Origin: Octopus vulgaris
Taxonomy: Eukaryota
NCBI GenBank assembly: GCA_951406725.2
Contig: OX597831.1
Coordinates: 32,860,001-32,924,000 of the forward strand
Length of the DNA: 64,000 nt
Reading direction: 5' to 3'
Positions 1,461 to 60,440 of this stretch are shown here, in pieces; the stretch's first letter is position 1, and the number at the start of each line of letters is the position of its first letter. The position numbers and the translations under genes were made by a program. The notes below the pieces were generated by a model. It saw nothing but the letters and a program-made list of their open reading frames with translations. It did not search any database and was not told the DNA's origin.

Positions 1461-1638
1461 TAGGGAGAATTCAGAAAAAAAAAAACAAAAGATGAAAATA
1501 GGTGGTGTAGACAACAATCAGATGTATTAATTTAACGCTCGGGAAGTGAAAAAGTCTTTAACGTTTCGAGCCTACGCTCTTCCACAGAAAGGAACACAGA
1601 AAGAAACAAGGACAGAAAATAAGATGTGTTGTGGCTAC
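1461..1638 (-). mobile_element. Family D: ~180-bp repeat carrying a minimal hammerhead-like motif (Penelope pLTR/retrozyme-like)
   Basis: Homologous to 20971-21150, 50919-51112, 52630-52795 and 60245-60440. Motif on minus strand at 1556-1591: CTTT-CTGTGGA-A-GAGCgtagGCTC-GAAA-CGTT-AAAG. Confidence 0.7.
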
Positions 1639-4755: not shown

Positions 4756-5329
4756 ACAAAAGAATGTGTATGCATGGTGGAACTCTTGAAGCCCCTGTGT
4801 CCGTGCAAATGTCTCTAGGGTTCAAAAGGTTTCTGTGCTTGAATTTTGCTTTTAGGGCATAAAGTGATGCACAGCACTAAAACCAGTGGCACAAAAGAGG
4901 GTGAGAAGACCAGAAACCAACTCTGCTCTTTTTTTATATTTATATATGATTTTAACATTAATTTGACGCTCAGTAAAAACAGAGTGTTTATGACGTTTCG
5001 AGCATTGTTTTTTGGGGGTCGAAAAGAGGAACGGGAAGAGTACAAAAGAAGGAAAAGGAATCACCAACAGCACGTTTGCTGTTACATACGCATACACGCA
5101 GGTGTGGATGTCTTCTTAGCACATACACACAGAGTACCTATGCTCGTCCAGAGCAGTGTTGTTTCTCAACAAAAGACTCATCAGACCTTGTTTGCGCGAA
5201 TTTACCGCGTACAAAGACGGCGAGATAAGCGATGAGTGAGGAATCGCTTAAACAAGTCGATTTGATTCTCATCCCCACTTCACAAAGATTCTAACATCCC
5301 TCGTGGCATTTAGATTAGATTCTGTGCGT

Positions 5330-14094: not shown

Positions 14095-15475
14095 AATGGT
14101 GAAATGATAAAGGCAATTCGATTTCAGTCCAGTTATACATACTTGGGAATATTTGAGGCAGATGGAATTAGACACAACGACATGAAGGAAAAGACAAAAA
14201 GAGAGGACCTGGCTTCAAAGCTGAATGCCAGAACATGATTTTGGCAATAAACTCGCGCGCAGTTTCAGTAGTTCGTTATGGCGCTGGAATCCAGAAGTGG
14301 ACAGAGGAGGAGCTAAAGGAGATGGGCAGGAAGTCGAGAAAGCTCCTAAGGATGCATGGAGCCCATCATTCCCGTGTAGATACTGATCGCCTATACATGA
14401 AGAGAGCAAACGGAGGAAGAGGACTGCTAAGTGTAGAAGACTGCGTACATATCGAACTCGAGAGCTTAACGAGATACCTAGCCGAAAGTAAGGATACCTT
14501 GCTAGTGGAGGGACAACCATTGGAATGAGCAAGTGTCTCCACTGTGCCGCATCTGTAATAGAGTAGATCAGACCATTGCCCATATCATGAAGGAATGCCC
14601 TAGACTTGCCCCAAACCACTACAAGTTGTGCGACACGATCAGGTGGCGAAAGTGCTAGGCTGAAATCTGTGCGAAAAGTGGGGACTAGAGAGAGGCAAAA
14701 CGTGGTATGAGAACAAACCGCAGAGAGTGGCGGGGTCGGAGACTAGCAAAATCCTCTGGGATTTCCCAATCCAATCAGATTAGGTGCTAGAGCATAATAG
14801 ACCGAACCTAGTAGTGGTGGACAAGATTCACCACATGTGCTATATAGTTGATGTTGCATGCCCTTTTGACCCACGAATAGTCCAGAAGGAAGGCGAAAAA
14901 ATAGATACATACAACCCTCTTAAGTACGAAAAAGCCCGGCTTTGGAAAATGAAGAAGGTGAAGATAGTGCCAATTATTGTTTGATCCTTGTGGACATGCG
15001 TAGTAGACCTGTTAGAAAAGGTTTGCTTCCTTGGCACAGCCGGAATAATCAGGAAAGTATTAGATAGGAGTAAAGATTGTTTGCCATCATAACATGGCAG
15101 TCCTGGTTTAGGACGAATGTTGCTGTAATTTAGCCCCAGGAGACAGTCTCCAGCTGGCTGTACGACACGATCTGTGTCCTTATATTTTCGAACAAAGGAA
15201 TCTAGCACACCTACTCGAAAATATAAGGGCACAGATTGTGCCTAAATTACAGCAACAATTGTTCTAAACCAGGACTGCCATGTTATGTTGGCTAACAATC
15301 TTTACTCCAAAGTACTGTTGCTGAGTATCTCTCGTTGTGAGATTTACGAATAGAAATTTTCTAATTATTAGCTGAAAAGAACGGATACCAAGGTACCGTA
15401 GGCTACAGGTAGTAAGCCCGCTACGCATGCAAGACTTCAGGAGCTCCAACAAAACCTGCAATAAAAAGAAAATAA
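14095..15475 (+). mobile_element. Degenerate R4/Dong-type non-LTR retrotransposon (RT C-terminus, CCHC knuckle, restriction-like endonuclease), ending in (AAT)n
   Basis: Fragments read YTYLG; AINSRAVSVVRYG...W...DRLYMKRANGGRGL; CRIC..TIAHIMKEC; RHDQVA; ILWDFPIQ; HNRPNLVVVDK...IVDVACP...EKIDTYNPL; KVCFLGTAGIIRKVL. The 3' UTR matches 50716-50820. Confidence 0.85.
15067..15368. mobile_element. Hairpin-like MITE inserted into the Dong-type element, with a TA duplication
   Basis: 15067-15132 is inverted at 15242-15308, with an inner inverted pair ctgtgtccttatattttcga / tcgaaaatataagggcacag. Removing the insert and one TA restores attagaTAgctgaaaag, as seen uninterrupted at ~50708-50724. Confidence 0.8.
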
Positions 15476-20970: not shown

Positions 20971-20976
<6 letters not shown>

Positions 20977-21150
20977 AGCCACTACACATTCTATATATTC
21001 TCTCCTTGTTTCTTTCTGTGTTCCTTTCTGTGGAAGAGCATAGGCGCGAAACGTTAAAGACTTTTTCACTTCCCGAGCGTTAAACTAATACATCTGTTTG
21101 TTGTCTACACCACCTGTCTACGTCTTTTGCTTTTTTGTGAATTCTCCCTA
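20971..21150 (+). mobile_element. Family D with hammerhead-like motif (21024-21059)
   Basis: CTTT-CTGTGGA-A-GAGCatagGCGC-GAAA-CGTT-AAAG; embedded in (TA)n. Confidence 0.7.
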
Positions 21151-31018: not shown

Positions 31019-31820
31019 ATATATATGCGAATGGTTTTGTTAAGCGGTACCGAGTTTTACAATTTTCCCATTGGGTAGACACACTGTGGACAGTTTATCG
31101 GTTTCATCCTCTCTTTTCTTCATAATTGGAGTGGAGAGTATGCTTTTGGGGTAGATGTTGCTTAATAGATTGTTACTGAGCTTGATCATTTCTTCATGGT
31201 GGGTTTCATGATTGCTACTTATATATATTGCTTGATGTTTTAGGCACTGAGCAATAATAATAATAATGTTATTTTATAAGCTTCCAGCGTATATAAGCGA
31301 TCACCGTGCAATGACTAAGAAAACCAATCTAATAATGGGGCATATAAACCCTCGACAGAAAAAGTTAGGTTTTCCCGTGTATACGGTGATCGCTATAAGC
31401 TTTACAAAATACCACATATATATGTGTGTGTGTGCGTGTGTGCGTCCATGTATAACCATATATACATGCATACACATGTGTGTGAGTAGCTGTGAGGTAT
31501 AAGATTTGCTTCCCGTCCACATCGTTCCGGGTTCAGCCCCACTGTGTGACAACTTAGACAATTGTCTTCTACTATAGCCTTGGGCCGACTAAAGCCTTTT
31601 GAGTGGATTTGGTAGGAAATTGAATCAAGCCAATGTATATATATATCTGTGTGTGTGTATTTGAGTACTATTTTTTTCCACCTTGTTTCACATTTATGCG
31701 CTTACCCAGGTATATATATACTTTTATTTTTTATTTGTTTCAGCCATTTGACTACAGCCATGCTGGAGCACCGCCTTTAGTCGAGCAAATCGACACCAGG
31801 ACTTATTCTTTGTAAGCCTA

Positions 31821-31874
<54 letters not shown>

Positions 31875-31878
<4 letters not shown>

Positions 31879-33955
31879 TAGACAAAGCCATTAGAGCAAA
31901 GAAACAGGCCTGGAAAGCCTGGAAGGATAGGGGTAGCAGGGAACTGTACCAGGTAGCCAAAAGAGAGGCTGGGCGGCAGGTATACATAGCCAAGGGCGAA
32001 GCAGAAAAGAAGAAGTTTTCCAATGTCCAGCGACGTGAGGACCAAAGAACTGAGGTATTTCAGATTGCTAGTCAGTGTGTGAGAGAAAATTGTGATGTCA
32101 CAGAGGAGAAATGCGTCCACATGGATGATGGTGCACTTGCTTTTAATGTTTCTGAAAAGAAAGAGGCTTGGAGAAGCCATTATGAAAGACTGCTGAATGT
32201 GGAGAATGAATGGGAGGAGGAGAGCCTGCCAAATGTTGACCCAGTAGAGGGACCAGCTATCCCAATAGACAGCTCCCTAGTAGATAAAGTAATTAAGAGT
32301 ATGAAGCCAGGAAAAGCCCCCGGCCCATCAGGAATGACTGCTGAGATGCTTAAAACATCTGTTGGTGTGGGATTTGGCCTAGTCACCCGCATTGTAAACC
32401 AGGTAGTTCATGATGGAGTCATACCCAATGACTGGCGTAGCAGCACCATAGTCAACTGCTACAAGGGTAAAGGTATGCGCTAGATAGAAATAACTACAGG
32501 AGTATTAAACTGCTGGATCAGGTGATGAAAGTCACAGAGAGAGTCATAGCCCATCTCATTAGGGAGAGAGTCTGCTTAGATGAGATGCAGTTCGGTTTTG
32601 TTCCGAGTAGGATCACCACTGATACCATATTCCTGGTTCGACAACTGCTGGAGAAATACCAAGCTAAAGATAAACCCCTCTACTTAACTTTCGTGGACTT
32701 GGAGAAAGCCTTTGACAGGGTCCCCCAATCCCTTATCTGGTGGGCGATGCAGAAACTGGAGATTGACGAATGGTTAATAAGGGCTGTACAGGCTTTATAC
32801 AGAGAGGCCGTTAGGAAGTTTAGGATTGGCAACGAGTATAGTGAAGAATTCCGGGTAGAAGTAGGGGTCCACCAAGGTTCAGCCCTCAGTCCCCTTTTAT
32901 TCATCATAGTCTTCCAAGCAATAACAGAGGAATTCAAGACTGGTTGCCCCTGGGAGCTCCTCTATGCTGATGACCTGGCCCTCATAGCAGAATCACTACC
33001 GGAACTAGAAATGAAATTTAGGGTGTGGAAGCTAGGTTTAGAATCAAAGGGCCTTTGAGTCAATGTAGCAAAGACCAAAGTTATAGTTAGTAGGAAGGCG
33101 AACTCATCACACACCCCCTCAGGTAGGTGGTCCTGCTCGATCTGTAGAAAATGTGTAGGTAGAAACTCCATAAGATGTACCCAGTGTAAGCTATGGACGC
33201 ATAAGAGGTGCATCAACATCAAAGGAAAATTAACCGAGAAGATAGCTTTCGTGTGCGGCAGATGCACAGGGGCAATAGACACCACAGATACTCAGAAAAC
33301 AGATTCCATTACACTCCAGGGGGAGAAACTAAAAGTAGTTGATAGTTTCCGCTACCTAGGTGACCAAGTTAGTAGTGGATGTGGGTGCTCAGAGAGTGTC
33401 ACCACTAGAATACGAATAGCCTGGGAAAAGTTTAGAAAGCTTCTACCTCTACTGGTGACAAAGGGTCTCTCGCTCAGAGTGAAAGGTAGATTGTACGTCG
33501 CATGTGTGCGGACTGCCATGCTTCATGGTAGTGAAACATGGGCTGTGACTGCAGAGGACATGCGTAGGCTTGAAAGAAATGAAGCTAGCATGATCCGCTG
33601 GATGTGTAACATCAGTGTGCACACACGGCAGAGTGTAAGCACCCTGAGAGAAATGCTGGACATAAGAAGCATAGGTTGTGGTGTTCAAGAGAGACGTTTG
33701 TGCTGATATGGTCATGTACTACGGATGGATGACGGGAGTGGTGTGAAGAAGTGCCACTCCCAAACAGTTGAAAGAATCCGGGGTAGAGGTAGACCCAGGA
33801 AGACATGGGATGAGGTGGTCAAGCATGACCTTTGAACGTTGGGGCTCACAGAGGCAATGACAAAAGACCGAGATCTCTGGAGATATGCTGTGACTGCGAA
33901 GACCCGACAAATAACGTTGAGTTCATCGCTGTTTTCTGCACCTGCTTTACATAGT
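31875..33955 (+). mobile_element. 5'-truncated RTE-clade LINE (disrupted ORF) with a PHD-type zinc finger inside the RT
   Basis: Fragments read KPGKAPGPSG; IPNDWRSS; QFGFVP; FVDLEKAFDRV; GVHQGSALSPLLF; LYADDL; VNVAKTKV; CSIC..CTQC..WTHKRC..CGRC; VDSFRYLG; LHGSETW; GRPRKTW; DRDLWR. Frameshift near 32470 and stops at 33056 and 33704. Confidence 0.9.
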
Positions 33956-44700: not shown

Positions 44701-44854
44701 ACAAAATATACATAGATGCATATATATGTATTTATAAATGTATGTATATTAATATGTGTGTATGTGTGTGTGTGCCGTAGCGTCAAACTAATACACCTGA
44801 TTGTTTGTTTCTTCACCTGTCTTTGTCTTCTGTTTTCTGTACAACTGAACCGTG

Positions 44855-49010: not shown

Positions 49011-49507
49011 TATATATATATATATACACTCACATGTATATATATATATGAGTGTATATGTGTATGAATGTATGTATATGTGTATATATATCTTCACATG
49101 GAAACAATTCAGCTATTTAATAAATTGACATGACAAAAATCATTGGGAAAGCAAGCAACTGTTAGTCTGGCAACGTGTACGATATCGATTGTCTGATTGA
49201 CTTTTGTTTGATATTATTGCCTGATGCAAGTTTGTGTTCGATATATATGTTTGATCTGTATCTTTGATAAGTATAGGTTTGTATGTCTGATACTTTTCAT
49301 ATATGTTTGATGTCTTTGTTTGATGTATGTTTGCATGATATGTGAGTACCTGTATGTTTGATATACCCGTATGATACACGTGGCCTTGACAAACGTCTGT
49401 TTGATCAAAGACCAATTAACTGCTAGCCATTAACTTCGAAAGTAGAAATATTATTATTATTATTATTATTGTTATTATTATCCCCCTTACTCCCCCTTTC
49501 ATCATTG

Positions 49508-50565: not shown

Positions 50566-50822
50566 AGATGGTGCCAATTATTATTGGGTGCTTGGAGACA
50601 GTATCAGAAGGCATCAAGAGGAATATCAAGGAAATTGGAATAGAGTGCCTACGAGAACTGTTACAAAAGGTTTGCCTCCTTAGCACGGCCAGAATAACCA
50701 GGAAAGTATTAGATAGCTGAAAAGACCGGATAGTATGGTACCCGTAGGCTGCAGGTAGTAATCCCGCTACAAATGCAAGGCTCCAGGAGTTCCAACAAAA
50801 CCTGTGATAAACAGAAATAATA
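50566..50822 (+). mobile_element. Second R4/Dong-type 3' fragment in tandem, same family as 14095-15475
   Basis: VPIIIGCLETVSEGIKRNIKEIGI...LLQKVCLLSTARITRKVLDS*; 3' UTR homologous to 15369-15475. Confidence 0.8.
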
Positions 50823-50918
50823 ATACAGATATTTATATGTACATATATATTTTTTAATTTTTAAAATTTTACCTAGTTTCAGCTCACGAGCTGTGGCCAT
50901 GCTGGGGCACTGCCATTA

Positions 50919-51108
50919 TAGATCGTTAGCCACTACATACATTTTTTCTCTCCTTGTTTCTCTCCTTGCTTTTTTCTGCGTTCCTTTCTGTAGAAGAGCG
51001 TAGGCTCGAAACATAAAAGACTTTTTCTATTCCTGAACGTTATACTAATACATCTGTTTGTTTTGTACACCACCTGTCTTCGTCTTTCGTTTTTTTACCG
51101 TAAAATCT

Positions 51109-51112
<4 letters not shown>
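50919..51112 (+). mobile_element. Family D with hammerhead-like motif (50984-51019)
   Basis: CTTT-CTGTAGA-A-GAGCgtagGCTC-GAAA-CATA-AAAG. Confidence 0.7.
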
Positions 51113-52124: not shown

Positions 52125-52520
52125 TAGGAGTGGCTGTGTGGTAAGTAGCTTGCTAACCAACCACATGGTTCCGGGTTCAGTCCCACTGCGTGGCATCTTG
52201 GGCAGGTGTCTTCTGCTATAGCCCCGGGCCGACCAATGCCTTGTGAATGGATTTGGTAGACGGAAACTAAAAGAAGCCTGTCGTATATATGTATATATAT
52301 GTATGTGAGTGTGTTTGTGTGTCTGTGTTTGTCCCCCTAGCATTGCTTGACAACCGATGCTGGTGTGTTTACGTCCCCGTCACTTACCGGTTCGGCAAAA
52401 AGAGACCGATAGAATAAGTACTGGGCTTACAAAAAGAATAAGTCCCGGGGTCGAGTTGCTCGACTAAAGGCGGTGCTCCAGCATGGCCGCAGTCAAATGA
52501 CTGAAACAAGTAAAAGAGTA
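52125..52520 (+). mobile_element. SINE family A, full length, young
   Basis: Complete head, body and tail. Confidence 0.9.
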
Positions 52521-52629: not shown

Positions 52630-52795
52630 GAACAAAATGCAAAAAGGAAAAAGCAAAAGACAGGGCCAGGTAAGAAAACAATGAACAAGGTGTATAAGTT
52701 TGACGCTCAGGAAAAATGGAAGAAGTCTTTGACGTTTCGAGCCGACGCTCTTTGACAGTAAGGAACAAGGAGAGAAAACAGAAGGAGATGGACAT
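52630..52795 (-). mobile_element. Family D, diverged subfamily, hammerhead-like motif at 52727-52762
   Basis: Minus strand reads CTTA-CTGTCAA-A-GAGCgtcgGCTC-GAAA-CGTC-AAAG. Confidence 0.6.
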
Positions 52796-59840: not shown

Positions 59841-60244
59841 TTCCATATGTAGATATGATTGTATGCGTGGCTGCAGAAGAGAAACTTCAAATGGGAAATC
59901 CCCCGTAGGTTTTACGCTCTTTCTCTTTTTCACTCTCTTATTTTTTACAGAAGCCTCCTCGCCTTTCTAGATTTTTATGCAAATCTGTTGTTACATTGTC
60001 CAATTCACCGTTGGTAATAGAAACAAGCGAGCAGCTGTAGGGTTCTCGTTTGTTCTCTATAATAACTATTTTCCCTAATTTTTTTAAGAGGCATTCACAC
60101 CCGCCGGTCACGTGCATCCATCCATCCATCCATCCCTCCATCCATCCATGCCTTTGTGTACGTACTTGCAGATACATATACACATAGTTATACGTACGTA
60201 CATACATATGTATATATATTTCTATATATGTATGTTTGCCATGA

Positions 60245-60435
60245 TAGATCGTTAGCCACAACACACATTTTTTTCTCTCCTTGTTTCTCTCCTTGTTTTT
60301 TCTGCGTCCCTTTCTGTGGAAGAGCGTAGGCTCGAAACGTAAAAGACTTTTTCTATTCCTGAGCGTTATACTAATACATCTGTTTGTTTTGTACACCGCT
60401 TGTCTTCGTCTTTTGGTTTTTTTTTCGTAAACTCT

Positions 60436-60440
<5 letters not shown>
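60245..60440 (+). mobile_element. Family D with hammerhead-like motif (60310-60345)
   Basis: CTTT-CTGTGGA-A-GAGCgtagGCTC-GAAA-CGTA-AAAG; followed by (TA)n. Confidence 0.75.

Follow-up and report, generated by a model that had tools for sequence, protein, structure and literature searches.

An abundant octopus repeat carries a minimal-hammerhead-type motif with U in place of A6 and may be a Penelope-like terminal repeat

Minimal hammerhead motifs occur in the pseudo-LTRs of metazoan Penelope-like retroelements, for which the published text reports one core variant, a compensatory U3–A8 swap (Cervera and de la Peña 2014, PMC4209133). Even with the canonical A6 these motifs cleave weakly, functions other than cleavage were left open (PMC4209133), and the role of weak minimal hammerheads in Penelope-like elements is a standing question (PMC4209133, PMC8557442). 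Penelope-like elements account for 6.83% of Octopus vulgaris, with 31 recently active families (PMC13282606), and the described octopus families that target (TA)n include Hydra-1_Obim, Naiad_Obim and Naiad_Ovul (Craig et al. 2021, PMC8557442); the Naiads are able to spread with no canonical hammerhead (PMC8557442). The non-LTR retrozymes are short, non-autonomous type I hammerhead repeats with a link to Penelope-like terminal repeats, have as their defining features tandem arrays, circular RNA forms and hammerheads that are mostly canonical, and are also found as dispersed solo monomers in other animals (PMC7229834; bioRxiv 10.64898/2026.07.22.740005). A natural change at position 6 in an otherwise intact core is known from the hammerhead of phage Bcep176 (A6C; PMC3088659; PMC7151607), for which the measured cleavage rates are 0.004 per min with 1 mM Mg2+ and 0.31 per min with 1 mM Mn2+ (PMC7151607). 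Mutants of the CUGA turn have low activity and no second-site rescue, and the supplements consulted for that work hold no per-mutant values specific to A6U (PMC9901934). In the literature searched, mostly main texts with few figures or supplements, we found neither a natural A6U core nor an octopus hammerhead family.

Here we analyse a short non-coding repeat in a 64-kb stretch of O. vulgaris DNA, referred to as the window, in which a minimal-hammerhead-type motif carries U at position 6. In our preferred reading, to which we give a probability of about one half, the repeat is the 3′ terminal repeat of a Penelope-like element and its U6 hammerhead would be a slow, dimer-dependent ribozyme in the source elements. 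The architecture of the motif is already known; what appears to be new, judged from sequence, is U6 as the norm in an abundant family of this type. It is also quite possible, as a tentative view, that a hammerhead lineage with U for A6 continues to drive the expansion of a major repeat, whether through a cleaving core outside CUGANGA or through a selected fold without catalysis.

The focal copy is the longest, at about 200 bp (positions 60238 to 60438, plus strand), and is followed directly by (TA)n; the depth of mapped contigs is near zero at both of its ends. The 5′ strand of stem I (60306–60313) comprises a 2-bp extension (60306–60307), a 2-nt bulge (60308–60309) and a paired segment (60310–60313). 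It leads into the core C3 U4 G5 U6 N7 G8 A9 with an extra A before stem II (60314–60321, U6 at 60317), a 4-bp stem II with a 4-nt loop (60322–60333, in which 60322–60325 pairs with 60330–60333) and a segment made up of G12 A13 A14, a palindromic ACGU that forms the minimal stem III, and N17 (60334–60341, N17 at 60341). The 3′ strand of stem I (60342–60347) closes the motif, with 60342–60345 pairing with 60310–60313. Placed by the published consensus, the predicted cut site lies between 60341 and 60342, and the repeat ends 97 nt past it. The core departs from CUGANGA, and from the U3–A8 variant, in having U6, and the remaining core positions fit.

A comparison with the minimal hammerheads of PMC4209133 reveals a match to the published consensus (CUGANGAH) at every position but 6. 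Shared features include a short stem I, the extra nucleotide after A9, G10.1–C11.1, GAAA, the palindromic ACGU for stem III, NUH, U-rich flanks and mostly dispersed solo copies, and the 4-bp stem II lies at the short end for these motifs. By contrast, A6 is present in all 44 rows of the representative alignment examined (PMC4209133). The octopus Penelope-like families resemble the repeat in their (TA)n insertion and in the position of the hammerhead, which in the Hydra clade is some 100 nt short of the 3′ end, whereas the Hydra hammerheads in the rows covered have A6 in 34/34 and mostly a stem III of 3–4 bp (PMC8557442). Unlike the tandem, mostly canonical retrozymes, the octopus copies are solo and carry U6 (PMC7229834; bioRxiv 10.64898/2026.07.22.740005). 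The Bcep176 hammerhead, in turn, is one phage sequence with C6 and measured cleavage, whereas the octopus motif has U6, belongs to a highly repeated animal family and is known from sequence (PMC3088659; PMC7151607).

Pattern matching located the 28-nt motif five times in the window (1560–1587(−), 21028–21055(+), 50988–51015(+), 52731–52758(−) and 60314–60341(+)) and in none of 100 dinucleotide shuffles. A profile search recovered five repeat copies with E values of 3e-54 to 4e-37, together with two remnants; an eighth match, at E 0.14, was counted as neither. One remnant is a 3′ part that lacks the hammerhead motif (44775–44840(+), E 1.5e-11), and the other retains the 3′ half of the motif and the adjacent flank next to a decayed 5′ core (4957–5004(−), E 1.3e-4). 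An earlier reading made from the letters alone (the sequence-only reading) had placed remnants near 4900–5040 and 44780–44850, both thus recovered, and had described five copies of about 180 bp; the number stands, and the lengths are 160–200 bp. Besides the focal copy, these are copy 2 (50912–51111(+)), with A at N7, a palindrome broken to ACAU and (TA)n directly after its 3′ end; copy 3 (20973–21149(+)), with a stem II mismatch at 21046 and (TA)n at both ends; copy 4 (1462–1637(−)), intact in the motif except for U6; and the diverged copy 5 (52633–52790(−)), which keeps U6 and has G8A.

U6, the extra nucleotide between A9 and stem II and the G10.1–C11.1 pair are present in 5/5 copies, and the ACGU palindrome in 4/5. 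N7 reads G, G, G, A and C across the copies and N17 reads A, A, U, U and C, in agreement with the earlier observation that the former is G, A or C and the latter never G. Stem I pairs are kept in 29/30 cells and stems I and II together in 53/55 (11 pairs in five copies). The shared consensus had been said to begin with CUUU; all five copies contain the 28-nt motif, and copy 5 reads CUUA, which breaks the first stem I pair. In this copy, the motif is 81–86% identical to the others, compared with 60–63% in the 3′ flank. The single-copy changes that had been described (at 21046, the AUA triplet in copy 2, and G8A) are present. CpG sites underlie G8A, the AUA triplet and one of the two changes in loop II, and we interpret these three as simple CpG decay in preference to tolerated variation.

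The sequence-only reading had proposed examining stems I and II for covariation and comparing the motif with Rfam hammerhead models, and neither gave support: there were no compensatory changes in the 11 stem pairs across the five window copies, and no hammerhead covariance model matched the focal copy (60250–60430) at E values up to 10. In the whole-window Rfam search, the 150 of 539 matches listed were below-threshold microsatellite matches and were rejected. A strict descriptor that allows any base at position 6 matched only the two intact copies in the window and detected no A6 hammerhead there.

The 3′ ends are fixed and the 5′ ends variable among copies, the longest sharing a 5′ end near 60238. 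The sequence ends in CTCCC followed by TA in 4/5 copies, and the 3′ end abuts (TA)n in 3/5, against a background of 2.3% (p about 1e-4), which upholds the proposed association with TA microsatellites. A fixed 3′ end, variable 5′ ends and a (TA)n bias together form the pattern expected of Penelope-like insertion.

To survey variation across the family, we mapped four of 24 listed public runs (X2, X7, X20 and X23) onto the focal copy. Matching contigs numbered 18,687 in X2, 5,014 in X7 (only guessed to be RNA) and one, at depth 2.3, in X20 (recorded as an RNA run), and 11 of the 12.9 million raw reads of X23 belong to the family. Neither X7 nor X20 was counted as a sign of transcription. Contig depth does not equal copy count, and the two large runs, X2 and X7, probably draw on one and the same family and do not give independent samples. 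Depth reaches 12 million units over the motif as compared with 1–5 million over the flanks, and at position 6 it is about half of that at stem II. Position 6 is A in 1.0% (X2) and 0.1% (X7) of depth, a share that may be under-counted if short contigs with adjacent mismatches are clipped, and C and G are not among the listed changes. U6 is the norm in nearly all of the alignable family, a set to which a diverged A6 sister family would be invisible by mapping on the focal copy; the claim that U replaces A6 in every copy holds in the window, and U6 is the prevailing state family-wide in two public runs. A6 is carried by 65 X2 contigs and by five X23 reads from two starts; these reads span about 110 bases (60254–60363) and may be a trace of an A6 subfamily, or come from one molecule.

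Depth-weighted N7 is U in 45/36% (X2/X7), A in 23/37%, G in 19/16% and C in 13/12%, and N17 is A or U, the latter in 22/20%, with G not among the listed changes. CpG sites within the repeat change at 2–14% of depth; CpG decay aside, the catalytic G8 and G12 are kept, and loop II is nearly invariant apart from its CpG site. Among non-CpG positions, 1/23 of a constrained set (the core without position 6, plus the stems) varies at 3% or more, compared with 8/24 in the 3′ flank (60346–60371; one-sided Fisher p = 0.013, rising to 0.042 if one of three unlisted X2 changes is counted against the constrained set). Core and stems are therefore conserved beyond the flanks, as the sequence-only reading had anticipated for a functional hammerhead. 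The varying stem I position, 60345, shows G>T in 9/6% (X2/X7) with no partner change listed; the 2-nt bulge of stem I varies at 7–32% and the paired positions around it have no listed change, a pattern noticed after the test. The core other than position 6 appears, on moderate evidence, to be kept under selection. Because several sources differing at N7 were amplified and no other non-CpG core change reaches 3%, we infer purifying selection on the source elements.

Predicted folding of the copies gave a pair probability of 0 for stem I in 5/5 and of at most 0.25 for stem II in 4/5; other hairpins are favoured, and the z-scores are unremarkable (−0.6 to 1.1). The modelled active dimer has energies of −10.9 and −9.9 kcal/mol, as compared with −12.0 for 36 A6 relatives described below, given as a median because one of the 36 energies was invalid. 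The active form is less stable than the best dimer fold by about 10 kcal/mol, and the best fold is likewise not the active one in the A6 relative L050. Two alternative pairings are available in the sequence: bases immediately 5′ of stem I are complementary to the 5′ arm and loop of stem II (60302–60329), and a second GAGC (60360–60364), which lies 36 nt downstream and shows only CpG decay among the listed changes, is complementary to the 3′ arm. Either one would switch the hammerhead off.

The autonomous partner with GIY-YIG and reverse transcriptase (RT) domains that the sequence-only reading had suggested was not found within the 64-kb window: tblastn of 75 proteins gave no match, and no Penelope-like open reading frame (ORF) lies beside any copy. 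A Penelope-like protein profile gave two weak window matches (31043–31273(−), E 0.012; 49143–49415(−), E 0.03), which are far from the copies, have no Pfam support and are possibly old Penelope-like fragments. The short repeat motifs did not match the published octopus Naiad and Hydra consensus sequences. Tandem copies, also sought, number 0/5 in the window; a single contig from the public runs has a head-to-tail-like joint that connects 60422 to 60238 and may represent a tandem junction. Classification as a tRNA-derived SINE or as a MITE was rejected; the window lacks tRNA genes, and no terminal inverted repeat is visible at the element ends.

We searched other collections with a relative pattern that keeps the same stem II ends and palindrome and allows A or T at position 6. 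It matched at least 120 metagenome loci (in 21/64 parts of the collection) and two viral loci; the viral matches (L121 and L122) have U6 and were rejected as chance because they lack stem I. Position 6 is A in 126/126 metagenome matches listed, and in 80 of these stem I has at least 3 bp. Searching for the U6 family pattern in its exact form gave no match in the metagenome, viral and prokaryote collections, and the metagenome loci listed have no likeness to the octopus repeat outside the motif. Among the metagenome loci, 22 match Penelope-like proteins (some of these matches overlap the repeat itself), and 21/23 motifs beside such matches lie on the coding strand; L046 and L065 contain RT domains, and L050 contains a GIY-YIG domain. 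The position of these A6 relatives beside Penelope-like ORFs assigns the motif architecture to Penelope-like terminal repeats, with U6 as the exception. Five loci (L012, L024, L053, L055 and L069) each contain a pair of A6 minimal hammerheads, one per strand, at spacings of about 25 to 430 bases, an arrangement like that of inverted Penelope-like insertions.

The anatomy of the motif and the context of its A6 relatives lead us to infer a Penelope-like origin. Of the earlier assignment to a family of Penelope-like or retrozyme type, the Penelope-like part gains from the minimal-hammerhead anatomy, the abundance and the TA bias, whereas solo copies do not fit a strict retrozyme. In the preferred reading, the repeat would be the short, non-coding 3′ terminal repeat of a non-autonomous Penelope-like retroelement. 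Tandem source elements would be transcribed, and base pairing between the ACGU palindromes of two motifs would allow slow cutting after N17, releasing RNA for reverse transcription; Penelope-like RT and endonuclease supplied from elsewhere would then insert copies at TA (steps extrapolated from PMC4209133 and PMC6765202). U6 would lower the rate of cleavage, as the published data on position 6 and the CUGA turn predict (PMC7151607, PMC9901934), and protein or metal ions would perhaps help.

A Penelope-derived repeat whose U6 motif no longer cuts, and is kept as a protein-recognised signal for packaging or RT priming, is an unlikely but substantial alternative. Changes of A6 are strongly deleterious in vitro, at least in the data consulted (PMC7151607, PMC9901934), A6 revertants have not spread, and loop II, too, is nearly invariant; moreover, Cervera and de la Peña leave room for non-cleavage functions (PMC4209133), and the Naiads show that such elements can spread without a canonical hammerhead (PMC8557442). 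However, a free N7 and an N17 with no listed G obey the rules of cleavage, and G8 and G12 are kept save for CpG decay, although these positions also have structural roles, so that their weight against a non-cutting signal is modest. Cleavage by the U6 core is what separates the slow ribozyme from the non-cutting fold. A cleaving core would mean that current search descriptors are narrower than the true hammerhead consensus and have overlooked entire repeat families; a core that does not cleave would mean that a fold has been selected without catalysis, pointing to a non-cutting role as a protein-recognition signal. Thousands of natural variants provide a ready map of the motif positions that matter.

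More doubtful is the possibility that A6U was disabling in one ancestor and hitch-hiked through a few bursts, the functional partner being a diverged A6 element and the apparent conservation reflecting shared ancestry, CpG mutation at C7–G8 and alignment bias. The A6-bearing X2 contigs and X23 reads, the halved depth at position 6, the lack of covariation in five copies, the probable non-independence of X2 and X7 and the origin of U7 from C7 that CpG decay allows would all suit such a history. Nevertheless, A7 and G7 require other changes and yet reach 16–37%, many subfamily differences are found in the flanks and are absent from the core, the most diverged window copy retains U6 and most of the core, and the X2/X7 clusters listed include no loose-end cluster at positions 6–8. 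We think it improbable, and the least plausible of these accounts, that the repeat moved without any Penelope-like protein, as a SINE-like element or tandem retrozyme monomer relying on its own RNA processing and the machinery of another LINE. The window holds no partner ORF, the longest copies have a defined 5′ end near 60238, one contig carries the head-to-tail-like joint, and retrozymes occur as scattered solo monomers in other animals (PMC7229834; bioRxiv 10.64898/2026.07.22.740005), but retrozymes have been described with canonical hammerheads in tandem arrays (PMC7229834). The missing tRNA gene and terminal inverted repeat also argue against this account, as does a T7 run at 60268–60274, upstream of the motif. 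Such a run would stop polymerase III before it reached the motif.

The dispersed solo copies in the window are probably inert, since none has an intact partner nearby and 3/5 carry disabling changes. Exon 1 of a SNAG-domain zinc-finger gene extends from 43210 to about 43410 (+) and ends at a GT donor; its single match is a zinc-finger protein of Octopus bimaculoides (67% identity), and no further exons of that protein were found in the rest of the window. Given the donor and the absence of a later exon in the window, three copies and one remnant probably lie in an intron of this gene, two of the three copies, including copy 2, in sense orientation, much as the sequence-only reading had placed them. 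Hammerhead cleavage of the intron is unlikely, because the sense copies are 9.3 kb apart and one has a broken palindrome. Compared with the O. bimaculoides protein, the exon encodes an inserted threonine repeat, and the intron exceeds 20 kb. The window also contains remnants that we take to be LINEs, at 515–1528(−), 31752–33706(+), 14172–14528(+) and 50600–50720(+), with Pfam RT domains in the first two; the 3′ end of copy 4 joins the RT remnant at 515–1528 at a TA. A very frequent repeat of about 390 bp, presumably SINE-like, is present at 52128–52520(+) and many other sites, also sits in microsatellites, and in one case has its tail abutting the 5′ end of copy 2.
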